Of a DNA stretch of 64,000 bases, positions 19,875-51,612 are shown in pieces (position 1 is the first letter of the stretch; each line of letters starts with the position of its first letter). The stretch lies in NCBI GenBank assembly GCA_020435965.1, contig JAGQYS010000010.1, positions 12,687 to 76,686 of the forward strand. Direction: 5' to 3'. The notes beneath the pieces are model-generated. The model saw nothing but the letters and a program-made list of their open reading frames with translations, made no database searches and was not told the DNA's origin. Source of the DNA: Flavobacteriaceae bacterium (GTDB lineage: Bacteria > Bacteroidota > Bacteroidia > Flavobacteriales > Flavobacteriaceae). Both the position numbers and the translations under genes were made by a program.

Positions 19875-21143
19875 TTGTCAAACTACAAAACAGGTCTTGA
19901 TTACGCCAAAGAGCAAGATGAAAAAGACCCATTGGCATTGTATAGAAACAAATTCCACATTCCAAAAGATAATAACGGAAACGAACTTATTTATCTCTGT
20001 GGTAATTCTCTTGGACTACAACCAAAATCAACCAAAGACTATATAAATCAAGAACTTTTAGATTGGGCTAATCTAGGTGTTGAAGGTCATCTGGAAGCAA
20101 AAAACCCTTGGTTGCCTTATCATGAGTTTTTAGCTAAAAGCACAGCAAAATTAGTTGGCGCTAAGCCTATAGAAGTGGTTACTATGAATACCTTAACCAC
20201 CAATTTGCACTTAATGATGGTGTCGTTTTACCAACCAACTCCAGAACGTTACAAAATACTTATTGAGAGTGATGCTTTCCCTTCCGATAAATATGCTGTT
20301 GAATCCCAATTACGACACCATGGATTTGATGACAAAGAAGGATTAATTCTTTGGAAACCAAGACAAGGAGAAGAATTATTGCGTTATGAAGATTTGGAAC
20401 AGATTCTAGAGAATCAAGGCGACGAGATTGCATTGATTATGATAGGAGGCGTTAATTATTATACAGGACAATATTTCGATTTAAAACGAATCACGCAACT
20501 TGGGCATAAACATGGTTGTATGGTTGGTTTTGATTGTGCTCATGGCGCAGGAAATGTACAATTGAATCTTCATGATTCTGGAGCAGATTTTGCAGTATGG
20601 TGCACCTATAAATATTTAAATTCTGGACCAGGAAGTTTAAGTGGTTGCTTTGTACATGAACGTCATGCACATAACAAAGATCTTAACCGATTTACAGGTT
20701 GGTGGAGTCATAACAAGCAAACGCGCTTTAATATGAGACATGAATTTGATGTGCTACCAGGAGCCGAAGGTTGGCAATTGAGCAATCCTCCTATCCTATC
20801 TATGGCTGCTATAAAAGCATCATTGGATATGTTTAATGAAGTTGGTATTGAAAAGCTAACAGAAAAATCTAAAAAACTAACTGGTTATTTTGAGTTTCTG
20901 TTAAAGCAATTAGGTGAAGATATGATTAGAATAATTACTCCTGAAAATCCAAATGAACGTGGTTGTCAACTTTCCATACAAGTAAAAAGTGCCAATAAAG
21001 CATTACACAATAAATTAACTGAAGCTGGTGTGATTAGTGATTGGAGAGAACCTGATGTAATACGTTGCTCTCCTGTTCCTTTGTACAACAGTTTTGAAGA
21101 TGTTTTCAGAATGGTTGAAAAATTAAAGGAAATAGTAAACTAA
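19875..21143 (+). CDS. kynU: Kynureninase
   Basis: 422 aa; N-terminus ...DPLALYRNKFHIP, PLP region CTYKYLNSGPGS, overall kynureninase layout. TTG start; no in-frame ATG before the conserved N-terminus. Confidence 0.92.
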   Translation: MSNYKTGLDYAKEQDEKDPLALYRNKFHIPKDNNGNELIYLCGNSLGLQPKSTKDYINQELLDWANLGVEGHLEAKNPWLPYHEFLAKSTAKLVGAKPIEVVTMNTLTTNLHLMMVSFYQPTPERYKILIESDAFPSDKYAVESQLRHHGFDDKEGLILWKPRQGEELLRYEDLEQILENQGDEIALIMIGGVNYYTGQYFDLKRITQLGHKHGCMVGFDCAHGAGNVQLNLHDSGADFAVWCTYKYLNSGPGSLSGCFVHERHAHNKDLNRFTGWWSHNKQTRFNMRHEFDVLPGAEGWQLSNPPILSMAAIKASLDMFNEVGIEKLTEKSKKLTGYFEFLLKQLGEDMIRIITPENPNERGCQLSIQVKSANKALHNKLTEAGVISDWREPDVIRCSPVPLYNSFEDVFRMVEKLKEIVN

Positions 21144-21145
21144 GT

Positions 21146-21244
21146 TGTCATTCCGCACTGTCCCACTGAGCGCAGTCGAAGTGTGATGCGGAATCCATTA
21201 TAATTAAAAACTAAAAGTAGATTCCTGCCTTCGCAGGAATGACA
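21146..21244. repeat. REP/MITE-like palindromic element (TGTCATTCC...GGAATGACA termini)
   Basis: tgtcattccgca...gagcgcagtcga...tgcggaatcc...gattcctgccttcgcaggaatgaca: terminal inverted repeats plus two internal hairpins. Fills the whole kynU-kmo spacer. Confidence 0.85.
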
Positions 21245-22648
21245 AAAATGAAAGAAAAAAAACAAAACATACTCATCATTGGTGCAGGACTTTGCGGAAG
21301 CTTACTAGCACTTCGTTTAGGGCAAAGAGGCTATAATGTAACCGTTTACGAAATGCGTCCAGACCTAAGGAAAGTAGACATTTCTGCTGGACGTTCTATC
21401 AACTTAGCGTTTTCAGATAGAGGCATTAAGGCTATGAAACTTGTTGGCATTCAAGACAAAGTAAAAGCGCTTTGCATACCTATGAATGGTCGTATGCTAC
21501 ATGATAAAGATGGCAATACATTTCTTTCAAATTATAGTGGACGAGACCATGAATATATCAATTCAATATCGAGAGGAGGTTTAAATGCTCTATTATTGGA
21601 TGAAGCCGAAAAACATAAAAATGTAAAGATTCATTTTAATAGAAAATGTAAGTCGGTTGATTTTGAAAAAACCACAGCCTTATTTAAGGATTATGATGGC
21701 AATTCAGAATTTGTTGAAGATGCAGATGTAATTATTGCTACAGATGGAGCAGGATCAGCAATGCGCAAAAGTTATTTTTTAAGCAAAAAATTCTTGTTTA
21801 GTTTTTCACAAGATTGGCTTACTCATGGTTATAAAGAGTTGAGCATATTACCAACAAAAGATGGAGATTATAAAACGTATAAAAACGCTTTACATATTTG
21901 GCCTCGTGGCGATTTTATGCTCATAGCATTACCTAATTTAGATGGTAGTTTTACAGTTACTTTATTTTTACATCATAGTGAAGGTGAATACAATTTTAGT
22001 AATTTAACCACACCTGAGATTGTCACTAAATTTTTCCAAAAAGAATTTCCAGATGCACTGGAACTCATGCCAAATCTGGTTGACGATTTCTTTGAGAATC
22101 CAACAGCAGCACTAGGCACTGTAAAATGTTCTCCTTGGCATTATAAAGGCAACACATTGTTAATGGGAGATGCTGCACATGCCATCGTTCCTTTTTATGG
22201 ACAAGGTATGAATGCCTCATTTGAAGATGTGGTTGAATTTGACAAAGTTCTTGACCAGAACCTCGATAATTGGAAAGCCATTTTTACAGCTTATGAAAAG
22301 TCACGTAAAAAAGATACTGATGCCATTGCAGATTTAGCAATTGACAACTTTCATGAAATGAAAGACCATGTAGCCAACCCAATATTTCAGAAAAAGCGTA
22401 AATTAGAAATGGCCTTAGAGAAACATTTTCCTGATGACTATTCTTCTAAATATTCATTAGTAACGTTTAATGAAGATATAAACTACAGAGCGGCAATGCT
22501 AAGAGGTCGTGCACAAGATAAAGCCATATTAAACATGCTTTCAGATGGTGAAATTGATCTTAAAGGTGATTTAAAAAGCATATTAGAAAAAGTAAAACAT
22601 GAAACCGAGGCCATTCTACAAGACGATAGAATTGCTGGATTAAAATAA
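21239..22648 (+). CDS. kmo: Kynurenine 3-monooxygenase
   Basis: 469 aa; FAD fold ILIIGAGLCGSLLALRL, GDAAHAIVPFYGQGMN motif. ATG 21239 lies inside the repeat terminus; ATG 21248 (MKEKKQN) is an alternative start. Confidence 0.9.
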   Translation: MTKMKEKKQNILIIGAGLCGSLLALRLGQRGYNVTVYEMRPDLRKVDISAGRSINLAFSDRGIKAMKLVGIQDKVKALCIPMNGRMLHDKDGNTFLSNYSGRDHEYINSISRGGLNALLLDEAEKHKNVKIHFNRKCKSVDFEKTTALFKDYDGNSEFVEDADVIIATDGAGSAMRKSYFLSKKFLFSFSQDWLTHGYKELSILPTKDGDYKTYKNALHIWPRGDFMLIALPNLDGSFTVTLFLHHSEGEYNFSNLTTPEIVTKFFQKEFPDALELMPNLVDDFFENPTAALGTVKCSPWHYKGNTLLMGDAAHAIVPFYGQGMNASFEDVVEFDKVLDQNLDNWKAIFTAYEKSRKKDTDAIADLAIDNFHEMKDHVANPIFQKKRKLEMALEKHFPDDYSSKYSLVTFNEDINYRAAMLRGRAQDKAILNMLSDGEIDLKGDLKSILEKVKHETEAILQDDRIAGLK

Positions 22649-22654
22649 CCAACT

Positions 22655-23059
22655 ATGAGTGAAAAAACAGTAACACCTAGAGGCGCTTATCCACACACAA
22701 AACGTGCTGGCGATTTTATTTTTGTGTCAGGCACAAGTTCACGTCGTGCAGACAATACCATTGCAGGAGTTGATATTATTGACGAAATGGGAACAAAACG
22801 CCTGAATATTGAAGTACAAACCAGAGAAGTACTTCAAAACATAGAAAAAAACCTCATAAAAGTAGGTGCATCAATGAAAGACGTAGTTGATGTAACTTCC
22901 TTTTTAGTGAATATGAATGACTTTGCTGGCTACAATAAAGCCTATGCAGAATTTTTTAATGCCGAAACAGGACCAGCTCGAACTACTGTTGCAGTACACC
23001 AACTTCCACATCCTGATTTGGTGGTTGAAATTAAGGTAATGGCATACAAACCACAATAA
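22655..23059 (+). CDS. RidA/YjgF-family enamine/imine deaminase (candidate 2-aminomuconate deaminase)
   Basis: 134 aa; YjgF/RidA pattern ([11 protein letters not shown]...[12 protein letters not shown]...VEIKVMA). The deaminase role is inferred from context only. Confidence 0.85.
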
Positions 23060-23067
23060 AAATAGTC

Positions 23068-23142
23068 TGTCATTCCGACAGAGCGCAGCGACGAGGAATC
23101 TCATCATTGGATTTCTCAATTGTTCCTCATGTTGAAATGACA
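23068..23142. repeat. REP/MITE-like palindromic element, same family as 47715-47792
   Basis: tgtcattccgacagagcgcagcgacgaggaatctc...atttctcaattgttcctcatgttgaaatgaca; termini TGTCAT/ATGACA; shares the right half almost verbatim with the element at 47715. Confidence 0.85.
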
Positions 23143-23222
23143 ATACTTAATATTAAAATTACCTATATTTAGATAACCAACCTCAAACCAACCTTAGCTT
23201 AATCACTTTTTAATTATAAACT

Positions 23223-24005
23223 GTGATTAAATTTTTCCGTAATATTCGAAAGCAACTTCTTGGAGAAGGAAAAACTTCCAAATACTTTAAATACGCTGTT
23301 GGTGAAATACAATTAGTAGTTATAGGAATCCTTATTGCGCTTCAAATTAATAATTGGAACGAAAACAGAAAATTAGAAAGTAGCAAACACAAGCTATTGT
23401 TAGCCTTAAAAAAGGAATTGGTTAATAATAAAAATGCAATGGATGATTATCTACTTGAGATGCATAAGAGCAATGCCAAATTTAATAAAGTGCTTCTTTA
23501 TTCAGTTGGACAATATAATATCCCAACCGATAGCTTAAAATACTATCTTTCTAATATGGTCTACGGAAGAACATTATCTCTATTAAACTCAGTACAGGAA
23601 GAAGCTATTAATTCTGGTAAATTTGAACTGTTAAACGATAGCCTAAAACAAACTCTTTCTCAACTAAAAGATTATACCAATTCAAGAAATTATGTTCAAG
23701 AACAAGGTATAGATATGTATTATTTTAAAAGTGACAAACAGACAGATAAGTTAATTAATAGTTTATACATGTCTCCAGTTGTGCCTGATGAATTATCAAA
23801 TCATCCATTAATCCCTACACATCCTGATTTAATATTAAGCAATAGTGAATTATCGGTTTTACTTAAAGATGCTGATACTTATTTAACATTAAATAAAATA
23901 TACCTAACACATATAGCTGACGAAGTTTGGGTTAAACATGGTCTTTTTAGAATTACAAACAATACAATTGAATTGATTAAAAAAGAACTGAATGCTTATG
24001 ATTAA
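23223..24005 (+). CDS. MIKFF...NNWNE family single-pass membrane protein, copy 1 (unknown function)
   Basis: 260 aa; GTG start; VIKFFRNIRKQLLGEGKTSKYFKYAVGEIQLVVIGILIALQINNWNE anchor module, divergent C-terminal domain. Confidence 0.8.
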   Translation: MIKFFRNIRKQLLGEGKTSKYFKYAVGEIQLVVIGILIALQINNWNENRKLESSKHKLLLALKKELVNNKNAMDDYLLEMHKSNAKFNKVLLYSVGQYNIPTDSLKYYLSNMVYGRTLSLLNSVQEEAINSGKFELLNDSLKQTLSQLKDYTNSRNYVQEQGIDMYYFKSDKQTDKLINSLYMSPVVPDELSNHPLIPTHPDLILSNSELSVLLKDADTYLTLNKIYLTHIADEVWVKHGLFRITNNTIELIKKELNAYD

Positions 24006-24702
24006 GTTTTTTAGAAAAATACGTCACGGACTCATGAATGAAAACAAAATGGGAAAATACTTTAAATATGCTATTGGTGAGATTCTTCTGGTAGTTATAG
24101 GTATCCTCATTGCATTAGGCGTTAACAATTGGAACGAAAAAAGAAAAGAAAAAAACAAAGAAGTTGTTTACTTAAATAGGTTAATGTCCAATTTAAGTTA
24201 TGATGTGTCATTGTACAAACAAATCATGCAAAGAGATTCCTTATTATTGGAAAGCATGACAAACTTAGAGGATGGGCTCACATCTAATGTTCTTTTGGAT
24301 AAAGAAAACATAACAGAATTAGTAACTGGTTATAGATTTACTTCCAACAAAACTACTATTGACAATTTAATATCCTCTGGACAAATTGAAGTACTAAGAA
24401 GTCATTATTTAGTGGAAAAAATATTCATGTACTACAGAACTGTGGAAAACATAGATAATGGAACTGACGAGGCTATATCCAATAATAATCGAAATACATT
24501 TGGACCCTTAATAATTAATTCAGGATATTTTAAAAATTCAGAAATTGATTTATACACATTAAAAAAGGATACTTCATTATTAACATCTATACGATTTAAA
24601 AAATTTTTGCTAGATAATCAATTAAAATTATACAATGGTCAGTATCAATTAGCACAAGAGCTTATTGAAGACATTAGAAATGAACTAAATTATATAGATT
24701 AA
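23998..24702 (+). CDS. MIKFF...NNWNE family single-pass membrane protein, copy 2
   Basis: Track ORF starts at 23992 (MLM...). The family-conserved MIKFFRKIRHGL start is ATG 23998, whose ATGATTAA contains the stop (TAA 24003-24005) of copy 1. Confidence 0.8.
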   Translation: MIKFFRKIRHGLMNENKMGKYFKYAIGEILLVVIGILIALGVNNWNEKRKEKNKEVVYLNRLMSNLSYDVSLYKQIMQRDSLLLESMTNLEDGLTSNVLLDKENITELVTGYRFTSNKTTIDNLISSGQIEVLRSHYLVEKIFMYYRTVENIDNGTDEAISNNNRNTFGPLIINSGYFKNSEIDLYTLKKDTSLLTSIRFKKFLLDNQLKLYNGQYQLAQELIEDIRNELNYID

Positions 24703-25436
24703 TGATTAAATTCTTACGTCATTTCCGCAAAACACTAATCTCAGAAAACAAAATGGGTAAATACTTCAAATACGCTATTGGTGAAATTCTATTAGTAGTT
24801 ATAGGAATTCTTATTGCATTACAAATTAATAATTGGAACGAACAACGTAAAGCAGAAAAATTAGGTCAAGATTATTTAAAAGGCATTAAAAGTGACCTTA
24901 CTAAAGATTTTGTATTGCTCGACTCAATTCTAAAAGGATACAGTAATGATATTAGTCTTATTAATTCAATTGATAATGAGTTTGAAAAACCCATTTATGA
25001 AATTAACCCTAAGTATAAACAGGTCTTAATTGAACCTGACACCAGTAGAACAAAACACTTGTTTTATAGAGGGATTTCTTTTAGACCAATACAAGCAACT
25101 TATAGTTCTTTGGTGGCAGATGGTAAATCCAGTCTAATAAAAAACCGTGATCTTTTTGAAGTCATTCAAGAGATTTACGATGAACGCCACAACCGCATTG
25201 AAAGTGTTTATGAATCCTTTAAAGCTAGTGAAAATCGCATTCATTGGAACTATGCTTACGAAAAGAAAAACTGGAACTATACAGATTTATTAAACTCTAA
25301 AAACGACAAAATATTTTTAGACCTATTTAATTTCACCGAAATTAAATACTTCTATAGTCAACATTTACTAAACCTCAGAAAAAAAATGACAGAAGTTATT
25401 ACTTTAATTGATAAAGAAATAAACCAAATTAAATGA
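24702..25436 (+). CDS. MIKFF...NNWNE family single-pass membrane protein, copy 3
   Basis: 244 aa; MIKFLRHFRKTLISENKMGKYFKYAIGEILLVVIGILIALQINNWNE; TAATG overlap with copy 2. Confidence 0.8.
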   Translation: MIKFLRHFRKTLISENKMGKYFKYAIGEILLVVIGILIALQINNWNEQRKAEKLGQDYLKGIKSDLTKDFVLLDSILKGYSNDISLINSIDNEFEKPIYEINPKYKQVLIEPDTSRTKHLFYRGISFRPIQATYSSLVADGKSSLIKNRDLFEVIQEIYDERHNRIESVYESFKASENRIHWNYAYEKKNWNYTDLLNSKNDKIFLDLFNFTEIKYFYSQHLLNLRKKMTEVITLIDKEINQIK

Positions 25437-26227
25437 TTAAATTCTTCCGTCATATTAGAAAATCGTTAATCGAAAAGAACAAAATGGGAAAGTACTTTAA
25501 ATACGCTATTGGTGAAATCATTTTGGTAGTTATCGGAATTTTAATTGCCTTAGGTATTAATAACTGGAATGAAAATAGAAAACAAAAGCTTGAAGAAAAA
25601 ATTATATTAGCTCAATTACATACCGAGTTTAACAGCAACCTTAAACAATTAAATCAAAAAATTGAACTAAAAAAAGAAATCATTAATTCGGCTTTAAAAC
25701 TATTTAAATATATAGATTTTGAAGAACTTAGAAACAAAGATAGTATCGATTATTATTTAGCCAGAACCATCCCATACACAACATTCGATCCAATTGTAAA
25801 CGAAATAACACTGTCCAATCAATTAAACCTATTACAAAATGACAGTTTAAAACAAAAACTTACTTATTGGACTTCTGAATTAGCCGATAATAGAGAAGAT
25901 GAATTAACTTGGAAATACTACCGTGAAAATAAATACATTCCATTTTTAGTAGAACATTACCAACTTAGAACCATTAGAAATCTTGCCAATCAATCAAATT
26001 TATTAGAAAAATATTTAATCGAAGAAAACACTTCTAACATTGTTGCTAAAATTGGAAAATCGAAGTATGAAGAAAATTATAATACATTATTAAATCTGCC
26101 AAATTTTGAGGATCACATAGAAAGATGTGTCACACAAAATAGGCATTCGCTTAATCAATCGTTAATTTTAAGAAAAAAAATAATGCAAATTATTGGTATC
26201 TTGGATCATGAAATCAAGCATCGATAA
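25433..26227 (+). CDS. MIKFF...NNWNE family single-pass membrane protein, copy 4 (full-length paralogue of copy 8)
   Basis: 264 aa; ATGA overlap with copy 3. The C-terminal domain aligns along its whole length with the 50076-50879 product. Confidence 0.8.
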   Translation: MIKFFRHIRKSLIEKNKMGKYFKYAIGEIILVVIGILIALGINNWNENRKQKLEEKIILAQLHTEFNSNLKQLNQKIELKKEIINSALKLFKYIDFEELRNKDSIDYYLARTIPYTTFDPIVNEITLSNQLNLLQNDSLKQKLTYWTSELADNREDELTWKYYRENKYIPFLVEHYQLRTIRNLANQSNLLEKYLIEENTSNIVAKIGKSKYEENYNTLLNLPNFEDHIERCVTQNRHSLNQSLILRKKIMQIIGILDHEIKHR

Positions 26228-26234
26228 ATTAAAG

Positions 26235-27674
26235 ATGAACATCCAAAACTATATAAACGGAAATTTCTACAACCCAATACAAGATAATTGGTTAGATAAC
26301 TACAACCCTTCAAACGGAGAAGTTTATGGCAAAATTCCTAATTCATCCAAAGAAGATGTAGAAAATGCTTACATCGCAGCAAAATCTGCTTTTCCAAGTT
26401 GGAGTCAAACCACTTTAGATGAACGCAGCAGAATCTTGCTCAAAATTTCTGAGCTCATCGAAACTAATCTTGACAGATTAGCTGAAGCAGAAAGCAAAGA
26501 CAATGGCAAACCCATTTGGCTAGCCAAAGCAGTAGATATACCAAGAGCATCTAGCAATTTTCGTTTTTTTGCTAACGCCACAACGCAATTTGCGAGTGAA
26601 AGCCACGAAAGTGTTGGTCATGATGCTATAAATTACACTCTGCGTCAACCTATTGGAGTTGTGGGCTGTATTAGCCCTTGGAACCTTCCACTCTATTTAT
26701 TTACTTGGAAAATCGCTCCAGCCATTGCAGCTGGAAACTGTGTAGTTGCCAAACCAAGTGAAGTCACACCAATGACAGCTTATTTGTTAAGCGAAATTTG
26801 CAATGAAGCAGGTTTACCAAAAGGTGTACTAAACATTGTTCATGGCTTAGGAACTACTGCAGGACAAGCTATTATAGAACATCCAGATATTAAAGCCATT
26901 TCTTTTACTGGAGGCACTGCGACTGGAGCACATATTGCTAAAGTAGCTGCACCTATGTTTAAAAAATTATCATTAGAACTAGGTGGTAAAAACCCAAACA
27001 TCATTTTTGATGATTGCGATTATGAAGATATGCTTAATACAACTATTCGCTCTTCCTTTGGTAATCAAGGTCAAATATGTTTATGTGGTAGTCGTATTTT
27101 TGTTCAAGATACTATTTACGAGCAGTTCAAAAAAGACTTTGTAAATGTAGTCAGCAAACAAAAAGTAGGTCATCCATCAGCTCGTGACACAAAAATTGGA
27201 GCCTTAGTATCAAAATCTCATCTGGAAAAAGTGTTGAGTTATGTAGATATAGCAAAAGATGAAGGTGGAAAAATATTATATGGTGGTAATCAGCTTACTA
27301 TTGAAGGTTATGAAAATGGTTATTATATGGAACCAACCATTATTGAAGTACCAACTGATGAATGTCGTGTAAACCAAGAAGAAATTTTTGGTCCAATTGT
27401 AAGTATCATGCCTTTTAAAACTGAAGATGAAGTGTTACAAATGGCAAACAAAGTGAAGTATGGATTATCAGCCACATTGTGGACGAACGATTTAAAACGA
27501 ACCATGCGCATGACCAATCAATTACAAGCAGGAATTGTTTGGGTAAACACGTGGCTAATGAGAGATTTACGTACACCTTTTGGAGGTGTAAAAGACTCTG
27601 GAGTTGGCCGTGAAGGTGGTTTTGAAGCTTTGCGCTTTTTTACAGAAGCAAAGAATGTTTGTATAAAGTATTAA
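26235..27674 (+). CDS. NAD-dependent aldehyde dehydrogenase, probable 2-aminomuconate-6-semialdehyde dehydrogenase
   Basis: Track ORF begins at 26193, but the ALDH-typical N-terminus (MNIQNYINGNF...) starts at ATG 26235. ELGGKNP and catalytic FGNQGQICLCGSR motifs. Pathway role inferred from neighbours. Confidence 0.82.
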   Translation: MNIQNYINGNFYNPIQDNWLDNYNPSNGEVYGKIPNSSKEDVENAYIAAKSAFPSWSQTTLDERSRILLKISELIETNLDRLAEAESKDNGKPIWLAKAVDIPRASSNFRFFANATTQFASESHESVGHDAINYTLRQPIGVVGCISPWNLPLYLFTWKIAPAIAAGNCVVAKPSEVTPMTAYLLSEICNEAGLPKGVLNIVHGLGTTAGQAIIEHPDIKAISFTGGTATGAHIAKVAAPMFKKLSLELGGKNPNIIFDDCDYEDMLNTTIRSSFGNQGQICLCGSRIFVQDTIYEQFKKDFVNVVSKQKVGHPSARDTKIGALVSKSHLEKVLSYVDIAKDEGGKILYGGNQLTIEGYENGYYMEPTIIEVPTDECRVNQEEIFGPIVSIMPFKTEDEVLQMANKVKYGLSATLWTNDLKRTMRMTNQLQAGIVWVNTWLMRDLRTPFGGVKDSGVGREGGFEALRFFTEAKNVCIKY

Positions 27675-27792
27675 AAGCCCACCCCAACCCTCTCAAAGGG
27701 AGGAAGTGTGCTAGAAACTAGAAAATAATGTATAATTAACTCTACTTTCCCGTTAGAGAGTTCCTCCCCTTTGGGGAGGTTAGGAGGGGCTT
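27675..27792. repeat. Palindromic intergenic element (AAGCCCACCCCAACC...GGTTAGGAGGGGCTT type)
   Basis: aagcccaccccaaccctctcaaagggagg ... cctcccctttggggaggttaggaggggctt: long imperfect inverted repeat filling the ALDH-SDR spacer. Confidence 0.8.
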
Positions 27793-27795
27793 ATT

Positions 27796-28578
27796 ATGAA
27801 TCTAAACTTAAACAATAAATACGCATTAGTCTGCGGAAGCACAGCAGGAATTGGTAAAGCAACAGCAATAGCTTTAGCAAGTGAAGGTGTACAAGTAACA
27901 CTAATTGCAAGAAACGAAGCTAAACTAAAAACAGTTTTAACAGAGTTGCCTCAACAGCGAAAACATAACTACATTGTTGCTGATTTCTCAAACCCAACAG
28001 AATTAAAACAAAAGGTATTAAATTATATAAACGAGAAGCATGGCTTTCATATTCTAGTAAATAATACTGGAGGACCAAAAGGAGGTCCTGTGTTTTCAGC
28101 TGAAATTGAAGAATTTGAATCTGCTTTTACACAGCATCTAAAATGCAACCATGTATTAGCACAAGCTGTAGTTCCGTTTATGAAAAGTGAAGGTTTTGGA
28201 AGAATTATTAATGTCATTTCAACCTCAGTAAAACAACCTTTAGATGGACTTGGTGTGAGCAACACCATTCGTGGTGCTGTAGCCAATTGGAGCAAAACCT
28301 TAGCTAATGAATTAGGTCAATTTGGAATTACAGTAAACAATGTACTTCCAGGAGCCACAGGAACTGAACGTTTAACAGAAATCATAAAAAATAAAAGTGC
28401 TAAAACTGGAAGTTCTGAAGATGAAGCTGCCAATGCCATGAAAAATGCAGTGCCAGCAAAACGTTTTGCTAAACCTGAAGAACTAGCTGATGCCATTACG
28501 TTTTTAGCAAGTGAACGCGCAGCATATATTAACGGAATTAACCTTCCTGTTGATGGCGGAAGAACAAAATCTTTGTAA
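27796..28578 (+). CDS. Short-chain dehydrogenase/reductase with atypical S-x3-R in place of the Y-x3-K catalytic pair
   Basis: 260 aa; cofactor motif CGSTAGIGKA, NNTGG, Ser in NVISTSV. A gapless alignment to FabG places S and R (GVSNTIRGAV) where Tyr151 and Lys155 sit. Confidence 0.82.
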   Translation: MNLNLNNKYALVCGSTAGIGKATAIALASEGVQVTLIARNEAKLKTVLTELPQQRKHNYIVADFSNPTELKQKVLNYINEKHGFHILVNNTGGPKGGPVFSAEIEEFESAFTQHLKCNHVLAQAVVPFMKSEGFGRIINVISTSVKQPLDGLGVSNTIRGAVANWSKTLANELGQFGITVNNVLPGATGTERLTEIIKNKSAKTGSSEDEAANAMKNAVPAKRFAKPEELADAITFLASERAAYINGINLPVDGGRTKSL

Positions 28579-28712
28579 AGCCATCCTAACCTTCCCAAAG
28601 GGAAGGAAAATCAAAAGGATTGTATTATCTTTAAGCTTTATTAATGATGTTAAATACTAACTCAAAACACCCCGTTTGAGTTTTTCCCCTTTGGGGAAAT
28701 TAAAAGGGGCTT
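28579..28712. repeat. Palindromic intergenic element, same family as 27675-27792
   Basis: aagccatcctaaccttcccaaagggaagg ... ttcccctttggggaaattaaaaggggctt; fills the SDR-HAO spacer and creates the false N-terminal extension of ORF 28676. Confidence 0.8.
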
Positions 28713-28717
28713 ATATC

Positions 28718-29254
28718 ATGAGCAAATTATATTCTCCAATTAATTTTAAAGCCTGGATTGAAGAAAACAGACATCTTTTAAAACCACCAGTAGGCAATAA
28801 AGTAGTTTGGAAAGATGGCGATTTTATTGTTATGGTTGTTGGTGGCCCTAATAGCCGAAAGGATTATCACTACAACGAAACACCAGAATTTTTCTATCAA
28901 GTTGAAGGTGATATTGTCTTAAAAGTGATTGACAAAGGCACACCAAAAGACATTCATATTAAAGAAGGTGAAATTTTCTTATTACCTCCAAAAGTACCGC
29001 ATTCACCTCAACGTGGCGCTAATACAGTAGGTTTAGTGATTGAATACCCAAGAGAAAAAGGGGTTAAAGATGCCTTACTTTGGTTCTGCGAAAATTGCAC
29101 AACCAAATTATATGAAGAAGATTTTACTTTAGATAATATTGAAACTGATATGCCTGTAATTTTTGACAAATATTATGGCGATAAAGGTAAACGTACATGC
29201 CCAAATTGCAGAGAAGTGATGCAACCACCAAAAAAAATTCAGATAGAAGACTAA
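28718..29254 (+). CDS. nbaC: 3-hydroxyanthranilate 3,4-dioxygenase
   Basis: Family-typical start MSKLYSPINFKAWIEENRHLLKPPVGNK at ATG 28718. Cupin core YHYNETPEFFYQVEG...LLPPKVPHSPQR. C-terminal rubredoxin-like CENC...CPNC site. Confidence 0.92.
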   Translation: MSKLYSPINFKAWIEENRHLLKPPVGNKVVWKDGDFIVMVVGGPNSRKDYHYNETPEFFYQVEGDIVLKVIDKGTPKDIHIKEGEIFLLPPKVPHSPQRGANTVGLVIEYPREKGVKDALLWFCENCTTKLYEEDFTLDNIETDMPVIFDKYYGDKGKRTCPNCREVMQPPKKIQIED

Positions 29255-29265
29255 TTAAAAAATTC

Positions 29266-29336
29266 GTCATGACGAGGAAGTGTGACGAAGTAATCTCACA
29301 ATAAAAGATTGCCACGCCAAATGGCTCGCAATGACA
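29266..29336. repeat. REP/MITE-like palindromic element (GTCAT...AGATTGCCACG...CTCGCAATGACA type)
   Basis: gtcatgacgaggaagtgtgacgaagtaatctc...agattgccacgccaaatggctcgcaatgaca; its right half recurs at 45633-45665. Confidence 0.8.
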
Positions 29337-30425
29337 ACTATGGAAAAACGTAAATTACGAATAAACGGTCACTCACACTTGCTTCCATATCCTGAGGAAA
29401 TCCCCCAGTTTATGAAAGACAAAGGTATTTTTTGGGTAGATAAAGACCGGAAATTTATGCTTCAAAAAGATTGGAATCGCCCAATAACTGATTCTAGTTT
29501 TTTCTTAAATGAAAAATTAGCATGGATGGAGCGTTTCAAGATAGATCACGCTGTTGTTTTAAATTTGTCACAACTCTATGGTAATGGTTTGCGTGTAGAA
29601 GAAATGAAGCAAGCACTACGTTTTCAAAATGATTTTAATGCAAGAATACAACGAGAGAATCCTAGTAAATTCACTTGTGGCTTTGTGGTTCATCCTGGTT
29701 TTGTTAAAGGAGCTTGTTGGGAAATTGAGCGTTGTGTTGAAGAATTAGGAATGCAACTATTGTGCTTACCAACACATTATATGGACACCATTGGCACTTG
29801 GCGTTGTATTTTTGATGAAGAAAACGAACCCATTTTTGAACTTGCAAATAAGTATAATCTTGCGGTTGAAATCCACCCTTATGATGGTGAAAAATTCATC
29901 AAATTAGAAAATACTTCTTGGCGTTTTCACCTTATATGGATGTTGGCGCAATGTGCTGATGCCTATCACTTTTTAACTTTAAATGGTTATCAAGAAAAAT
30001 ATCCAAATATGCGTACGTGTTTTGCTCATGGAGGACAATTAGCACAAATAAACTTAGGAAGACGCATACAAGGGTTTGATGGACGACCAGATTTATTTGA
30101 AGGCAAACATCACCCAAGGAAGGCTGTTGGCCATAAAAACATTTTCTTTGACACTTTGGTTCATGACACTGGTGGACTGCAACTTTTAATTAAGAATCAA
30201 GGTTCAAAACAAGTCCTGATGGGATTAGACGACCCTTATCCTTTAGGGGAAATGGAGAGTGCCAAGCAAAGCTCGTATCCAGGTAAAATTTTAGATTTAG
30301 CCATGGAACGCCAAATCATTACAGAAGAAGAACGCGACGCCATTTGGGAAGACAATGTGATACAATGGTTGTGTGGTGGTGATGAAGAAGCAAAACAAAA
30401 ATTACTCAACAGAATATTAGATTAA
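29331..30425 (+). CDS. nbaD: Amidohydrolase-2 family decarboxylase, probable 2-amino-3-carboxymuconate-6-semialdehyde decarboxylase (ACMSD)
   Basis: 364 aa; blocks shared with human ACMSD as I recall it: HSHLLP, ERCVEELG, EIHPYD, CFAHGG, RPDLF, DTLVHD, DDPYPLGE. ATG 29331 is inside the repeat terminus; ATG 29340 is an alternative. Confidence 0.78.
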   Translation: MTTMEKRKLRINGHSHLLPYPEEIPQFMKDKGIFWVDKDRKFMLQKDWNRPITDSSFFLNEKLAWMERFKIDHAVVLNLSQLYGNGLRVEEMKQALRFQNDFNARIQRENPSKFTCGFVVHPGFVKGACWEIERCVEELGMQLLCLPTHYMDTIGTWRCIFDEENEPIFELANKYNLAVEIHPYDGEKFIKLENTSWRFHLIWMLAQCADAYHFLTLNGYQEKYPNMRTCFAHGGQLAQINLGRRIQGFDGRPDLFEGKHHPRKAVGHKNIFFDTLVHDTGGLQLLIKNQGSKQVLMGLDDPYPLGEMESAKQSSYPGKILDLAMERQIITEEERDAIWEDNVIQWLCGGDEEAKQKLLNRILD

Positions 30426-42098: not shown

Positions 42099-42105
42099 AA
42101 AGAAG

Positions 42106-46155: not shown

Positions 46156-46938
46156 ATGATTAAATTTTTTCGTCGTATTAGACAACGATTGGTTTCTGAA
46201 AGCAAATTTTCTAAATACATATTATACGCCATTGGTGAAATTATTCTCGTAGTTATCGGAATTCTTTTAGCGCTTCAAATAAATAACTGGAATCAACAAC
46301 GAATTGAAGACAAAAAAGAGATAGAACTACTTATCGATCTAAAAGATGAATTTAAAAATAATTTAACCGAATTGGAAGAGTCTATTAACATCAATAAAAA
46401 AGTTACTCAATCCTGCGTTGACCTTACCAATATTATCAGGTCAAATTCATTATCCAAAAAACCTGATGTTGTAGATAAACTATTGATCTCAATTGGCAAT
46501 TTTAATTCTTTTGATGCCAAAACTGGAGTTTCAAGCGAAATAGTTAACTCTGGCAAATTGAGCATTTTAAAAAACGAAGCCCTAAGAATACAATTAAACA
46601 ATTGGTTAACCATAATTATTGACTCTGAAGAAGATATTCTTTTTAGGTCAGACAACTACACGATTAGCCTAATGCCTTTTTTGATGAAGCGGTTTCCGCT
46701 CGCAAATGGAGAGCTTACCAAAAAACTACCTTTTGATAGGAACAACAAATTGCAAACATACCAAGAAAAATCGCCTTTTGAAGCTGATTTAAACCAAGAG
46801 GATTTAATGGAATTTGAAAATCAGATCTGGCACCATAAACATAATCAAGATTATGTTGCTATCAACGAACTAAACCTAAAGGATTTTATTCTGGCCACAA
46901 TTGGTATGATTGAAAACGAGTTAAACAAAAAGTTATAA
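46156..46938 (+). CDS. MIKFF...NNWNE family single-pass membrane protein, copy 5
   Basis: 260 aa; MIKFFRRIRQRLVSESKFSKYILYAIGEIILVVIGILLALQINNWNQ. Confidence 0.8.
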   Translation: MIKFFRRIRQRLVSESKFSKYILYAIGEIILVVIGILLALQINNWNQQRIEDKKEIELLIDLKDEFKNNLTELEESININKKVTQSCVDLTNIIRSNSLSKKPDVVDKLLISIGNFNSFDAKTGVSSEIVNSGKLSILKNEALRIQLNNWLTIIIDSEEDILFRSDNYTISLMPFLMKRFPLANGELTKKLPFDRNNKLQTYQEKSPFEADLNQEDLMEFENQIWHHKHNQDYVAINELNLKDFILATIGMIENELNKKL

Positions 46939-47679
46939 ATGATTAAATTCTTTAGAAAAATACGCTACAACCTCATGGAAACAGGAAAAACTGGTAAATA
47001 CCTAAAATATGCCATTGGCGAAATTATTCTCGTAATGATTGGTATTCTTTTAGCACTACAAGTAAACAATTGGAATCAAGATCGATTAAACACTATCGAA
47101 AAAAAGGAGTTGCTCTCAAAACTACACTTTGAGTTTAAATCCAATAAAAAAGCTATTGAAACTTTTAGAATTGCTGAAGACAAAGCCATGAGTTCAAGTA
47201 TTGAATTAATCAATCTTGTTGGAGCTACTAAACAAGAGTTATCTAAACATAATCTCGATAGCTTATTTTTTGAATCTTTTCCTGCAAATGAATTGGCTTT
47301 TGCTAATAATGCTGTAAACGATATAGTACAAAATGGACATCTTAATCTTTTTAAAGACGAAGAAATTACAACATTGTTGTACCAATGGAATTCGCTTTCC
47401 GAGATTAGAAAAACCCGATTCGAAAAACTGGATTTATGGAACAACGAGCAGTTTATCCCCTTTTTATTGCCTTTTATTTCAATGAGGGAAATGGACAAAT
47501 ATTCCAATTACAAATGGACTGGAAAATCTAAAGTAAAGCCAGATTATTACCCTTTGTTCCAGAAAGTTGAATTTGAAAACCTATTGGACAATTCTTTATG
47601 GTTACATCAACAGATTGTTGAGAGGCTTAATGAAACTGAAAAACTGATTGATGAGATAATCAATGCCACAAAACCTTAA
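46939..47679 (+). CDS. MIKFF...NNWNE family single-pass membrane protein, copy 6
   Basis: 246 aa; ATG immediately follows the copy-5 stop (TAAATG); N-terminal 46 aa are identical to copy 7 except for 1 residue. Confidence 0.8.
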   Translation: MIKFFRKIRYNLMETGKTGKYLKYAIGEIILVMIGILLALQVNNWNQDRLNTIEKKELLSKLHFEFKSNKKAIETFRIAEDKAMSSSIELINLVGATKQELSKHNLDSLFFESFPANELAFANNAVNDIVQNGHLNLFKDEEITTLLYQWNSLSEIRKTRFEKLDLWNNEQFIPFLLPFISMREMDKYSNYKWTGKSKVKPDYYPLFQKVEFENLLDNSLWLHQQIVERLNETEKLIDEIINATKP

Positions 47680-47685
47680 CTATTT

Positions 47686-47714
47686 ATGATTAAATTCTTT
47701 AGAAACATATCAAC
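47686..47714 (+). pseudogene. Orphan 5' stub of a MIKFF-family gene, truncated at the MITE-like element
   Basis: atgattaaattctttagaaac (MIKFFRN) is identical to the copy-6 start for 20 nt, then runs straight into the repeat at 47715. Confidence 0.6.
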
Positions 47715-47792
47715 TGTCATGTTGAGCGCAGTCGAGACATCTCATTATGAGATTTCTCAATCGTCACTTCGTTTCCTCATGTCGAAATGACA
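47715..47792. repeat. REP/MITE-like palindromic element, same family as 23068-23142
   Basis: tgtcatgttgagcgcagtcgagacatctcattatgagatttctcaatcgtcacttcgtttcctcatgtcgaaatgaca. Confidence 0.85.
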
Positions 47793-47798
47793 AACAAA

Positions 47799-48518
47799 AT
47801 GATAAAGTTCTTTAGAAAAATACGATACAACCTTATGGAAACAGGAAAAACTGGTAAATACCTAAAATATGCCATTGGCGAAATTATTCTCGTAATGATT
47901 GGTATTCTTTTAGCACTACAAGTAAGCAATTGGAATGAAAAACGCAAAGACAGGATAAAAGAGCAATCCGTTTTATCATCAATCAATAAAGAATTTAAAA
48001 TGAACAAAATTCAATTTGATTCTGTTTTATACTTTCATAAAAAGGCTTATAATGGCTGCAACAAATTGATTGCAATGTTTCCCATTGATATTGAAAGGGA
48101 TAATTTAGATACCATTTCAAAGCACCTTTGGGATGCTGCATATAATTGGACGTTTAACCCTTCACAAGGAACTATAAACAGCATTATAAATACATCATCT
48201 TTTGATATTATAAGCAATGATGAGCTTAGAGGTTTGCTGGTATCTTGGTCAGACATCGTTTTGGATTTACAAGAAGATGAAATTCAGAATAAGAAAGTAG
48301 TATTTGAGCAGATGGATCCTTTTTTTGCAGGAAACATTGACTATAATTTTAATTTAAAAGACAAGCGAAATAATTTAAACGTACTAGAATCCATTAAATT
48401 TGAATATCTCATTAGGTTAAGGCAAGCTCTTCTTTGGGAACTTTTTAAACCAGGAGCAGAAATTGAAGTTTTAGAGAAAAACCTAGAAAGAATTATTGAA
48501 CTTACATCAGAAAAATAG
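47799..48518 (+). CDS. MIKFF...NNWNE family single-pass membrane protein, copy 7
   Basis: Track ORF begins at 47787 inside the repeat terminus (MTNK); the family start MIKFFRKIRYNL is ATG 47799. Confidence 0.8.
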   Translation: MIKFFRKIRYNLMETGKTGKYLKYAIGEIILVMIGILLALQVSNWNEKRKDRIKEQSVLSSINKEFKMNKIQFDSVLYFHKKAYNGCNKLIAMFPIDIERDNLDTISKHLWDAAYNWTFNPSQGTINSIINTSSFDIISNDELRGLLVSWSDIVLDLQEDEIQNKKVVFEQMDPFFAGNIDYNFNLKDKRNNLNVLESIKFEYLIRLRQALLWELFKPGAEIEVLEKNLERIIELTSEK

Positions 48519-48538
48519 AAACTCTTAAACCAACACAC

Positions 48539-49966
48539 ATGAAAAAAGCTTTAAAACTATTAGGAATACTAATACTCATCGTTTTAGCTGTCTTAATTTT
48601 TAATACCTTAAGACTAAGCTCAAAACAAGTAGCTCCACAAGCCTTAGAAAGTGTCAACCTACCAAGTGATGCCTTTCACAACCTTTCAAAAGCCATACAA
48701 TTTCCAACCGTTTCTTTCAGTGAAGATGCCATTCCAGACTCAACAGCATTTTTTGGTTTTCACAGATTTCTTGAAGAAACCTTTCCGTTAACACATACTA
48801 ATTTATCTCTAGAAAAAATAAACGATTACAGTTTACTCTATAAATGGGAAGGTTCAGACGCTTCAAAAAAACCTATTATCTTAATGTCACATCAAGACGT
48901 AGTTCCTGTTGATGAGCCAACTTTAAACGATTGGGAAGCCGAGCCGTTTTCAGGTAAGATTACTGACACGCATATTATTGGTCGTGGCACAATGGACGAT
49001 AAAGGTACATTGATAGGATTATTAGAGGCTGTGGAAAAATTACTCGAAGAAGGTTTTGTACCAACTCGAACCATTTATCTTGCTTCTGGACACGATGAAG
49101 AAGTTGGTGGAAGCAATGGTGCTGCTGCCATCGCAGCACATTTAAAAGCAAAAGGAATACATGCAGCCATGACACTCGATGAAGGTGGTTTTATTGCTGA
49201 AGATTTAGTTCCAGGAGTAAATAATCCTGTTGCTATGATTAATCTATCCGAAAAAGGTTTTGCTTCATTTAGGTTGATTGTAGAAACCACTGGAGGACAC
49301 AGCTCGCAACCTCCACGCGAAAATACCATTGGCATGTTGGCACAAGCCATTGTAGATTTAGAAAACAATCAGTTACCTTACAAATTGGTTAATCCTGTTG
49401 ATTACCAATTAGAATATATGGGAGCTGAACTACCCTTTTTTCAAAAAATGGCTTTTGCCAATCCTTGGTTGTTTAAAAAACCAATATTGGAAGCTTTAAA
49501 TGCGCATACCACGACTGCTCCAACCATAATTGATGGAGGAGTGAAAAACAATGTGATTCCAACAGTTGCTGAAGCAACCATTAATTTTAGAATTCTACCT
49601 GGTGAAACCATAGAATCTACACAGCAACATATTGAAGCTGCCATTTCAGATAAAATAAGAGTAGAACCTGTTGGTTTTTTAACCAATCCATCTCCTGTTT
49701 CAAGTATCGATTCTGAAGCTTTTAAAATATTAGAACAAACCATTCGTGATATGTTTCCAACAAGTATTGTTGTTCCAGGTTTAGTTGGTGGTGGCACTGA
49801 TGCCAGATATTTTTATGACATTTCAGATGATGTGTATCGTTTTTACCCTATTCGTATCGGTCCAGACAGCATGACCAGATTTCATGGTATTGACGAAAAA
49901 ATAAGTAAAGACAATTACAAAGAGATTATTGAATTTGCCTACCATTTAATAAAAAAGTTTAATTAA
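48539..49966 (+). CDS. M20/M25/M40-family metallopeptidase with N-terminal membrane anchor
   Basis: 475 aa; TM (LLGILILIVLAVLIF); SHQDVVPV, GRGTMDDKG, GHDEEVGG metal-binding blocks. Confidence 0.85.
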   Translation: MKKALKLLGILILIVLAVLIFNTLRLSSKQVAPQALESVNLPSDAFHNLSKAIQFPTVSFSEDAIPDSTAFFGFHRFLEETFPLTHTNLSLEKINDYSLLYKWEGSDASKKPIILMSHQDVVPVDEPTLNDWEAEPFSGKITDTHIIGRGTMDDKGTLIGLLEAVEKLLEEGFVPTRTIYLASGHDEEVGGSNGAAAIAAHLKAKGIHAAMTLDEGGFIAEDLVPGVNNPVAMINLSEKGFASFRLIVETTGGHSSQPPRENTIGMLAQAIVDLENNQLPYKLVNPVDYQLEYMGAELPFFQKMAFANPWLFKKPILEALNAHTTTAPTIIDGGVKNNVIPTVAEATINFRILPGETIESTQQHIEAAISDKIRVEPVGFLTNPSPVSSIDSEAFKILEQTIRDMFPTSIVVPGLVGGGTDARYFYDISDDVYRFYPIRIGPDSMTRFHGIDEKISKDNYKEIIEFAYHLIKKFN

Positions 49967-49983
49967 TGATAAAGTTTTTTAGA
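49966..49983 (+). pseudogene. Orphan 5' stub of a MIKFF-family gene overlapping the M20 stop (TAATG)
   Basis: atgataaagttttttaga = MIKFFR, then unrelated sequence and a stop after 33 codons. Confidence 0.55.
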
Positions 49984-50075
49984 TTATCGAAACAAAATTT
50001 TGCTACTGCAAAATCAAATGTCCAATGGACATTTGGTGGAGATAGCCGCTTGCGGAAAAAATAGAAACTAAAAGT

Positions 50076-50879
50076 ATGATAAAATTCTTCAGAAAAATAA
50101 GATACAATCTTATGGAAACTGGTAAAACTTCAAAATATTTAAAGTATGCTATTGGCGAAATTATTCTTGTAGTTATTGGTATCCTCATTGCTTTAAGCAT
50201 TAATAATTGGAATGAGTCAAGGAAAGAAGCTATTCAAGAAACTGCAATACTAAACCAATTACATATTGAATTTAGAAGCAATTTAAGACAATTGGATGAA
50301 AAAATTGATTTGAAAAAGGAAGCGATAAATTCATCATTACAGCTATTTAAATATATTGATTTTCAAAATCTTCGAAATAAAGATAGCGTTGATTATCATT
50401 TAGCAAGGACATTGCCATTTTCTACATTTGACCCAATAGTAAATGACTTGGCTAGTTCAGGAGAATTAAGAATGATAAAAAACGATAGTTTAAAACAAAA
50501 GCTCTCTTTTTGGACGTCTGAAGTAAAGGATTTACGAGAAGAAGAGGTGGCTTGGCAAGAGCATAGAAATAATAAATATGAACCTTTCCTTATTAAGCAT
50601 TATCAACTAAGAACCATTAGAAATATCGCCAATAAAACGAACGTTTTAGGAAAATATTTAATTGAAGACAAGTCGACCATCATGAAACCTGTAATTGGTG
50701 TCACTAAACATCCTGAAAATTTTAACCTATTGTTGAATCACCCAGACTTTGAAGATCATATAGAAAGGTGCTTAACAAAAAATAATCATGCGCTTAACCA
50801 AGCTTCTATTTTGAGAAAAAGATTAATAGAAATATTAGACATATTAAATTCTGAATTAAAGAATACAAACAATGATTAA
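50076..50879 (+). CDS. MIKFF...NNWNE family single-pass membrane protein, copy 8 (paralogue of copy 4)
   Basis: 267 aa; MIKFFRKIRYNLMETGKTSKYLKYAIGEIILVVIGILIALSINNWNE; the C-terminal domain aligns along its whole length with copy 4. Confidence 0.8.
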   Translation: MIKFFRKIRYNLMETGKTSKYLKYAIGEIILVVIGILIALSINNWNESRKEAIQETAILNQLHIEFRSNLRQLDEKIDLKKEAINSSLQLFKYIDFQNLRNKDSVDYHLARTLPFSTFDPIVNDLASSGELRMIKNDSLKQKLSFWTSEVKDLREEEVAWQEHRNNKYEPFLIKHYQLRTIRNIANKTNVLGKYLIEDKSTIMKPVIGVTKHPENFNLLLNHPDFEDHIERCLTKNNHALNQASILRKRLIEILDILNSELKNTNND

Positions 50880-51593
50880 ATTCTTTCGTCATATTCGTAA
50901 ATCACTCCTTATGGAAAACAAAACAGGAAAGTACTTTAAATACGCTATTGGCGAAATTGTACTCGTTGTAATTGGTATTCTTATTGCTTTAAGCATTAAT
51001 AATTGGAATGAAAAACGAAAAACAGAAGAAAAAAAACCCATAGGTTTTTATTAGGCTTAAAAGCCGATTTACAAAACGATTTAGAAGCCATCAATTTTGT
51101 GATTGATATCCAAAATTCACGATTTAATGCTATTAAAGATTTAATTGATTTTAGCAACTCGCCAAATGTAAAAACCATCATTGAAAATGACTCCATGAAA
51201 GCATCACAAGGTGGTAGGAATTTTACTTTTTTTCCTGTTGTTGGTTCGTATAAAGCAGCCAGCAATACAGGATTAATTGATAATATAAAAGATGAACAAC
51301 TCAAAAACAATATTTTAAACTTATATGAACATTTATATGTAAGAATAAATTATAATGGAGAAATTAATGATAATAGATACGAAATGGTTGATTGGGAAAG
51401 CAGGAACTATATTGATTATACAAAAAAGGAACTTGTGTTTGATAAGCGTGGACTGCTCGATAAGGATTTCGTGAATCAATTAGGCTTTTTAAATAGATTT
51501 GTAAGAGTATATATTGGACGATGTGATGACACAAAATTAGCGATAGAAACAACCTTAAAGGAAATAAACAATTATTTAATGGTTTATGATTAA
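50872..51593 (+). pseudogene. MIKFF-family copy 9, split by a frameshift at an A8 tract
   Basis: ORF 50872-51054 carries the anchor module and stops 6 codons after A8 (51029-51036). Frame 0 is open from 51012 and continues as ...HRFLLGLKADLQNDLEAINFVIDIQNSRFN... into ORF 51099-51593, matching the juxtamembrane pattern of copy 3 (YLKGIKSDLTKD). One extra A or two fewer As would restore about 241 aa. Confidence 0.75.
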
Positions 51594-51612
51594 ATGCTTT
51601 AAAAACTTATAA
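51586..51612 (+). pseudogene. Orphan 5' stub of a MIKFF-family gene at the array end
   Basis: atgattaaatgctttaaaaacttataa (MIKCFKNL*); its ATGATTAA supplies the stop codon of copy 9. Confidence 0.55.

Follow-up and report, generated by a model that had tools for sequence, protein, structure and literature searches.

Where neighbouring prokaryotic genes overlap by a few nucleotides (nt), a shared 4 nt (-4) is by far the commonest arrangement, followed by -1 and -8 (PMC10666635). In reporter assays, reinitiation is efficient between about -8 and +10 nt and drops steeply beyond about +10 to +20 nt; at -8 it is somewhat less efficient than at -4 or -1 (PMC10666635). RNA unfolding and reinitiation are both accepted mechanisms of the resulting coupling (PMC12548453). 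Bacteroidetes use Shine-Dalgarno sequences neither in initiation nor in reinitiation (PMC6728339), and their ribosomes sequester the anti-Shine-Dalgarno sequence (PMC7797042, PMC6847099). The junctions described here come from a flavobacterial stretch of 64,000 nt (contig JAGQYS010000010.1, positions 12,687 to 76,686; henceforth the window), which carries nine genes of the family DUF6090 (PF19578), all on the + strand and of 234-267 codons, in two tandem arrays where the stop codon of one gene repeatedly lies inside or directly against the start of the next. The observation is real and general: at its core, it is stop-start overlap of the familiar kind, which is particularly dense in tandem arrays of paralogs. 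The probable explanation is that a Met-Ile-Lys start, conserved in a genome rich in AT, gives rise to it as an ordinary by-product, and that the 5' module is subject to gene conversion in these old arrays.

As in the short overlaps for which coupling has been described (Huber et al., 2019, PMC6728339; 2023, PMC10666635; reviewed in PMC12548453), which are enriched in functionally linked genes, same-strand neighbours in these arrays share 1, 4 or 8 nt, and their junctions fall in the -8 to +10 nt range of reinitiation in reporter assays. They differ in joining paralogs of a single family, in having -8 rather than -4 as the commonest class, and in that the stop is supplied by one conserved start sequence.

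Stop-start junctions in the window

Array 1 (copies 1 to 4; 23223-26227, + strand) lies between the genes for RidA and an aldehyde dehydrogenase in a kynurenine-pathway cluster; array 2 (copies 5 to 9; 46156-51593, + strand) is interrupted by an M20 peptidase gene. The encoded proteins begin with a conserved N-terminal module of about 46 residues, common to all nine (MIKFFRxIRxxLxxxxKxxKYxKYAIGEIxLVxIGILxALxxNNWN) and made up of a basic tail, a single transmembrane helix and an NNWNE motif. The remaining 200 residues or so form a variable helical body. These bodies are 20-35% identical pairwise, with the exception of copies 4 and 8 (59%).

All features named in this section are on the + strand. 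In array 1, copy 1 (23223..24005), which has a GTG start, ends at the TAA within ATGATTAA, the start of copy 2 (-8); copy 2 (23998..24702), whose start at 23998 is also chosen by an external gene call, shares one nucleotide with the ATG of copy 3 (TAATG, -1); copy 3 (24702..25436) ends at the TGA within the ATGA of copy 4 (-4); and copy 4 (25433..26227) is the final gene. In array 2, copy 5 (46156..46938) directly abuts copy 6 at 46939 (TAAATG, 0 nt). Copy 6 (46939..47679) is followed, after a 6-nt spacer, by a start stub (stub 1, 47686..47790), and copy 7 (47799..48518), beginning ATGATAAAG, lies beyond it. The stop of the M20 peptidase gene (48539..49966) overlaps the ATG of a second stub (stub 2, 49966..50064; TAATG, -1), and copy 8 (50076..50879), beginning ATGATAAAA, ends at the TAA in the start of copy 9 at 50872 (-8). 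Copy 9 (50872..51593) is frameshifted at an A8 run (51029-51036) into a 60-codon N-terminal and a 164-codon C-terminal part in all four assemblies that carry it, and could be either a pseudogene or a gene with a slippage-prone tract; its C-terminal open reading frame (ORF; 51099-51593) stops at the TAA of a terminal stub of 8 codons (51586..51612, ATGATTAAATGCTTTAAAAACTTATAA; -8), after which no family gene follows. The window junctions, at -8, -1, -4, 0, -1 and -8, all lie at the distance of termination-reinitiation pairs (about -8 to +10 nt, same strand).

A first-pass annotation of this DNA had listed the junctions (-8 at 23998, 50872 and 51586, -4 at 25433, TAATG at 24702 and 49966, and TAAATG at 46939), and every one of them is correct, as is its remark that the next start supplies the C-terminus of three proteins (...AYD, ...NND, ...VYD); stub 1 at 47686 is a third stub in addition to those it had listed. 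Its broader statement, that the family start carries stops in both other frames, is mechanically so for ATGATTAA, with TGA in the +1 frame and TAA in the +2 frame (frame 3), but does not extend to three of the twelve start modules (47799, 49966 and 50076), which read ATGATAAA and are without a frame-3 stop. Counted as a word, ATGATTAA shows no enrichment across the window (11 occurrences against 8.45 expected); eight of the 11 lie at family starts or stubs, where the word recurs because the gene starts are homologous.

Junctions in other genomes

Family starts were located with a profile of the N-terminal module in 80 loci with 10-kb flanks from other Bacteroidota (Flavobacteriaceae, Saprospiraceae, Balneolales and Algoriphagus; locus numbers with L below), giving 81 sequences together with the window. 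Of the 402 module hits, 370 place the start codon precisely at profile position 1, and the first eight bases of family starts read ATGATTAA 166 times, ATGATAAA 110 times and ATGATCAA 30 times. This bears on whether the overlaps could be artefacts of annotation, the true starts being internal ATGs further downstream and no bases being shared. Some automatic gene calls do use internal starts for copy 7 (227 amino acids) and copy 8 (255 amino acids); other gene calls take the conserved starts, conservation in those 370 homologues begins exactly at Met1 (MIKFF), with unrelated residues preceding it, and the upstream stop lies within the conserved module whichever start is true. An artefact is thus extremely improbable.

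Between two full-length family genes (n = 252, from 58 loci of other genomes), 57 junctions are at -8 (23%), 38 at -4 (15%), 5 at -1 and 63 at 0 to 12 nt; for same-strand non-family neighbours from the same DNA (n = 542), the corresponding counts are 17 (3.1%), 12 (2.2%), 13 (2.4%) and 91. The background genes were called as longest ORFs, a simple procedure that recovered 291 of 330 profile-defined family starts. Where a non-family gene precedes a family gene (n = 96), the counts are 1, 4, 1 and 19. Junctions within arrays fall between -8 and +12 nt in 64% of cases (n = 274), as against about 25% of background pairs. At least one -8 junction occurs in 24 of the 58 loci, at least one -4 junction in 26, and both in 14; proteins encoded upstream of a -8 junction have Asn-Asp, Asp-Asp, His-Asp or Tyr-Asp as their last two residues. 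The ratio of -8 to -4 is nearly the same in the arrays (1.5) and in the background (1.4), where the starts at -8 junctions typically read ATGAATAA and similar. The pattern is thus general, both -8 and -4 being used in many genomes.

Family members in Balneolales-like metagenome-assembled genomes (MAGs; L004 9201-13850, L005 1843-5600) start MKIFRN or MPAIFKN, not MIKFF; being without the ATGATTAA module, they form a natural control set for junction types.

Frame independence of the start

The first-pass annotation took the start to be a conserved, frame-independent junction. In its full form, this explanation holds ATGATTAA to be a universal stop-start adaptor, which selection retains to permit gain, loss or shuffling of cassettes in whatever frame, through recombination between 5' modules. 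The module does mechanically terminate both other frames; the window, like many other genomes, makes use of the two stops, sometimes within one array, and fewer tight junctions belong to the in-frame class (25) than to either of the others (83 and 68). In-frame fusions of two 5' modules were sought and none was seen, which is expected if selection removes fusions.

The codon usage and the spacing tell against such an adaptor. Family starts that are not part of a -8 junction have ATT as codon 2 in 117 of 262 cases (45%); ATT makes up 53% of all isoleucine codons in family genes and 46% of those before an AA- codon; wherever the TAA is unused, ATT at codon 2 is thus at or below ordinary usage, and selection for it is rejected. 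The frame-3 stop is missing from the 38% of family starts that read ATGATAAA or ATGATCAA. Once overlaps are excluded, the frame classes of short spacers are even (20, 28 and 25), and non-family genes upstream do not exploit the module, overlapping family starts in 6 of 96 cases against 42 of 542 in the background, i.e. without excess. ATGA is the rule in these genomes, opening 60% of the background genes, and in 6% of these genes both other frames meet a stop within 8 nt. Ordinary codon usage thus supplies the frame-3 stop about half the time, the stop being frozen only where an upstream gene has come to depend on it.

Recombination at the 5' module

The first 137 nt of copies 6 and 7 (46939-47075 and 47799-47935) are 96% identical, with five differences, while the sequences are unrelated immediately after the NNWN codons and upstream of both ATGs, and the bodies are 28% identical. 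Conversely, copies 4 and 8, with bodies 59% identical, have 5' modules that are 69% identical at the DNA level, no closer than random pairs; copy 8 carries the module type of copies 6 and 7, and copy 9 that of copy 4. Such mosaics recur across the 80 loci: 37 pairs in about 20 of them have 5'-module DNA at least 88% identical and bodies less than 45% identical, as compared with a between-locus module identity of 69% (median) and 77% (95th percentile). Near-identical 5' tracts are commonest between adjacent copies (at a 90% cut, ten pairs at separation 1, eight at 2, three at 3 and three beyond). In L043, a 267-nt block of stub, element and 5' module is 91% identical in two otherwise unrelated paralogs, direct evidence that such insertions travel with the module by conversion. 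The recombination at the 5' module that the first-pass annotation had proposed is thus supported in the form of gene conversion, the breakpoints of similarity mapping to the module and the tracts extending from the ATG to about nt 137.

This resembles concerted evolution by gene conversion, in which sharp-edged, near-identical tracts are likewise found between divergent neighbouring paralogs; unlike there, the converted tract is the conserved 5' module and not a variable region, and there is neither an expression site nor silent cassettes. Antigenic-variation systems of the pilE/pilS, vlsE or msp2 type combine one expressed locus with promoterless, partial silent cassettes, from which variable segments are copied into that locus; the DUF6090 copies, by contrast, each have their own start and full length, and conversion affects their conserved module, not the variable body.

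The adaptor explanation and the first-pass annotation would also have whole cassettes come and go. Array composition does differ between genomes. A Polaribacter MAG (L018 4228-16568) holds a DUF6090 array at the same kynurenine-cluster position, with flanks 67-84% identical to those of the window and non-orthologous cassettes (bodies at most 43% identical); orthologues of copy 1, 65-68% identical, occur in arrays of different composition (L002, L006) or alone on a short contig (L001), their homology beginning at the ATG and ending inside the module of the next gene. These differences fit cassette turnover, with fast divergence of the bodies as the alternative. Recent tandem duplication was considered as the source of the arrays and is rejected: no pair within a locus has bodies at least 70% identical, so that the arrays are old sets of diverged paralogs, with no evidence of recent cassette gain by duplication. 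Two exact-protein look-ups retrieved nine contigs of the organism from at least four samples or assemblies; the four aligned at the DNA level are 99.8-100% identical, with a 9-nt indel in copy 3 as the only variant, and thus show no structural variation and are uninformative on array breakpoints. Nor is there an integrase or invertase near the arrays. Taken together with the codon usage and the even frame classes, this leaves a selected adaptor for cassette exchange improbable.

The lack of integrases also bears on the resemblance to integron cassette arrays, with which the DUF6090 arrays share tandem, same-strand, tightly packed variable genes, each opening with a recurrent sequence. They are unlike integrons in having neither integrase nor attC, in that the recurrent sequence is coding and part of the protein, and in their conserved position in a metabolic operon; the genes called up to 10 kb from the two arrays include no integrase or recombinase Pfam family, and most junctions have no spacer able to hold an attC site.

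Stubs and hairpin elements

The 15-mer that encodes MIKFF occurs 287 times in the 81 sequences, 34 of them outside full-length genes, so that the three stubs of the window are no oddities. In a recurrent architecture, a 5'-module stub of 5-19 codons is followed by an element of about 80-110 nt and then by an intact family start, with 110-170 nt from ATG to ATG. It is found twice in the window, three times in L063, twice each in L017 and L043, and once each in L002, L026, L074, L010, L019, L027 and L028. This stub-element-restart architecture and the family-restricted element type described below are the truly unfamiliar parts of the system, and do not seem to have been described.

In the window, stub 1 matches the 5' module over about 24 nt, resembling the start of copy 6 and not that of copy 7, and opens a 34-codon ORF, which runs through the type-A element (47715..47792, + strand; a REP/MITE-like repeat TGTCAT...ATGACA, where REP stands for repetitive extragenic palindromic and MITE for miniature inverted-repeat transposable element) and stops 8 nt before the ATG of copy 7. 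In stub 2, the 5' module is present over 18 nt (ATGATAAAGTTTTTTAGA), and the 32-codon ORF that begins there stops 11 nt before the ATG of copy 8; between stub and gene lies the type-B element (49984..50055, + strand), a conserved three-hairpin element of about 72 nt followed by an AT-rich tail, here up to 50075. The M20 peptidase-stub arrangement was sought elsewhere by tblastn, which returned nothing even at E = 10 and is thus uninformative on its recurrence. REP elements mobilised by a REP-associated tyrosine transposase (RAYT) would come as many near-identical palindromic copies per genome, together with a RAYT gene; in the 64 kb of the window, each element type has one copy, and related copies occur in other genera.

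Type-A copies 89-92% identical are found at four loci of other genomes (three from named lineages, one from an unclassified Bacteroidia MAG); copies in other genera lie in L057, L028 and L009. The repeats are not confined to DUF6090 arrays, and sequence related to type A is present at 42072-42099, 21218-21244 and 23066-23117 of the window.

For type B, a pattern search of metagenome contigs yielded 44 contigs, which, pooled with the genome loci, give 41 distinct stub-bearing copies (other sites are L002 13088-13185, L019 8406-8486, L074 7796-7908, L010 1055-1159 and L089-L132). Wherever the flanking sequence is long enough, a stub nearly always precedes the search pattern, at a distance of 21-60 nt (mostly about 30-40 nt); an intact family start follows it in 36 of the 41 copies, at 74-119 nt (mostly about 80-90 nt). 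The genes downstream are different paralogs, with bodies about 28% identical, from which it follows that the element has moved from one paralog to another. One and the same end of it is abutted by stubs of differing length (5, 8 and about 15 codons). Its outer stem is supported by covariation, and its second hairpin shows compensatory changes (one pair is G-C in 19 copies, U-A in 12 and A-U in 2, another U-A in 23 and C-G in 12); the invariance of the first hairpin is uninformative, because it is fixed by the search pattern. In the window, the type-B region folds with z = -2.4, and no Rfam covariance model matches near 49984-50055 at E <= 1.

As an origin of the stubs, target-site duplication is rejected: they agree with their own downstream start at 12.36 of 15 nt, and with starts of other loci at 12.22. 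The elements resemble REP sequences, bacterial interspersed mosaic elements (BIMEs) and MITE-like repeats in being hairpin elements of about 80-110 nt that are spread across genomes and genera and lie in short operon spacers. Type B is unlike these in being found only between a DUF6090 stub and an intact start, in having no target-site duplication and no linked transposase, and in apparently spreading with the flanking homology of the 5' module.

Short palindromic insertions that are translated in frame are also found inside the 5' module itself, at about codon 18-20, e.g. ...NKTGKPALPAGRYLKYAIGEI (L014 2881, L022 703, L058 3664, L078 6983, L092, L123). Many stubs are truncated at this same position, which may be an insertion hotspot.

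Stubs as possible relay reading frames

The position of the stubs raises the possibility that they are themselves translated as relays, a ribosome restarting at the stub, unfolding the hairpin element, stopping by the intact start and restarting there, so that coupling is kept across the insertion. Several regularities speak for this. In 12 of 19 genome cases, the stub frame is open to within 12 nt of the intact ATG, while the other two frames are open that far in 5 of 38 (Fisher p = 2e-4). Among type-B copies, the stub ORF ends at -8 to +12 nt in 25 of 36, ten times through the TAA of ATGATTAA; the stop of the upstream gene lies within -8 to +9 nt of the stub ATG in 19 of 32, and this ATG is kept in 33 of 36. 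Variation in the stubs is almost confined to third codon positions (360 first- and second-position sites hold 11 changes), in contrast to the diverged element, whose hairpins are nevertheless conserved, with the compensatory changes and the fold in the window described above; RNA unfolding and reinitiation are each established in coupling (PMC12548453).

Other points tell against it. The copies are not independent: in one frame, 23 of 23 are open and end near the ATG, in another 2 of 13, the remaining 11 stopping 34-69 nt before it. Since the AT-rich tail before every start has stops in all frames, an ending near the ATG requires only that the frame be open through the element. Repeated conversion by intact neighbouring modules could mimic the third-position pattern, and the terminal stub of the window (51586) leads to nothing. 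A relay function is thus possible, though doubtful.

A reading that joins these features would see the DUF6090 start of about 15 nt as a portable restart module in Bacteroidia blind to Shine-Dalgarno sequences, the retained stubs as relays across the inserted hairpins, and type B as an element that spreads in a homing-like manner without an endonuclease. Type B would then propagate between non-orthologous paralogs by double-strand break repair or gene conversion, with the duplicated 5'-module sequences serving as its homology arms. We consider this combination rather unlikely.

The DUF6090 proteins and their genomic setting

The Pfam profile of DUF6090 detects eight of the nine copies at 30-49 bits; copy 6 scores 21.0 bits, slightly under the gathering threshold of 23.5 bits, and has the complete N-terminal module. 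An NCBIfam search of the copies matched no family model, and a literature search found no paper that names DUF6090. The AlphaFold model of copy 1, built from an alignment of eight sequences, is all-helical, with a long helix that forms transmembrane segment and stalk (mean predicted local distance difference test score, pLDDT, 67); a Foldseek search with it against the PDB gave no hit below E = 0.04. On these predictions, the best description is that of single-pass, membrane-anchored helical proteins.

The window has a G+C content of about 33% and matches ENA WANG18 scaffold_199 and NCBI GCA_041392045.1 (a marine metagenome-assembled flavobacterium). Array 1 is set among genes of the kynurenine and NAD-synthesis pathway (19875-30425), in the order kynureninase, KMO, RidA, the four DUF6090 copies, aldehyde dehydrogenase, SDR, 3-HAO and ACMSD. 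An external gene call begins the aldehyde dehydrogenase at 26208, in a 20-nt overlap with the end of copy 4 (26208-26227); an alternative ATG at about 26235 would leave a short spacer instead. Just past the 153-codon gene that follows array 2, a strong, terminator-like bidirectional hairpin (52191-52217) has 11 pairs and T-runs on both strands; it is the sole such site near the arrays, the terminator scan having found none inside either of them. In sum, scans for sigma-70 promoters and for terminators gave counts at the level of shuffled sequence, the promoter model not covering Bacteroidetes promoters, and an Rfam scan of 22500-52500 returned nothing relevant.

Discussion

The anatomy of the junctions and their generality are direct observations, and so is the absence of codon-level selection for a frame-3 stop that is not in use. 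They are probably to be explained as the by-product outlined at the outset. In this explanation, the two operon-like tandem arrays would hold anciently diverged DUF6090 paralogs. With a fixed Met-Ile-Lys N-terminus and a G+C content of about 33%, the start is usually ATGAT(T/A)AA(A/G); its ATGA always brings a TGA in the +1 frame, and the ATT version adds the TAA in the +2 frame. Where C-terminal tails are unconstrained and genes tightly packed, two of the three possible frames meet their first stop only within the start that follows, which yields -4 and -8 junctions; once a -8 junction had formed, ATT would be locked in. The 5' module of about 137 nt, from the ATG to the NNWNE codons, would act as a portable block of homology, homogenised between neighbouring paralogs by gene conversion, and small hairpin elements in or beside it would spread with it, the start stub staying at the old junction and the intact start coming to lie past the element.

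Several points weigh against this explanation. Overlaps are about five times commoner inside the arrays than in the background (40% versus 8%), more than a passive by-product would give, so that a further contribution is needed, such as selected coupling or inherited junctions. The class that dominates the arrays, -8, is not the -4 that is by far the commonest across prokaryotes (PMC10666635). The background is a set of 542 pairs only, from a crude longest-ORF caller, and junctions of one array, or of related genomes, are not independent observations. The operon status of the arrays and the coupling within them are deduced from sequence, and the model of copy 1, with its mean pLDDT of 67, gives no significant fold match.

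Junctions between -8 and +10 nt would allow coupling, either by termination-reinitiation or of the unfolding type, which we consider a reasonable inference and not a result. As the ribosomes of Bacteroidia disregard Shine-Dalgarno sequences, such coupling might be of particular use to these bacteria. The DUF6090 arrays supply -8 junctions in large natural numbers, and do so in a phylum unable to rely on Shine-Dalgarno pairing; they thus offer a convenient test bed for reinitiation in its absence, including the question whether -8 is truly less efficient than -4. As a case of the well-known short stop-start overlaps that is specific to one family, they also show, through the absent selection for an adaptor, how such junctions could be over-read. 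Their 5' module clearly exemplifies how a stretch of coding sequence provides the homology for recombination within arrays of paralogs; and if it is true that the stubs are translated relays, they would show how operons can tolerate insertions without loss of coupling.

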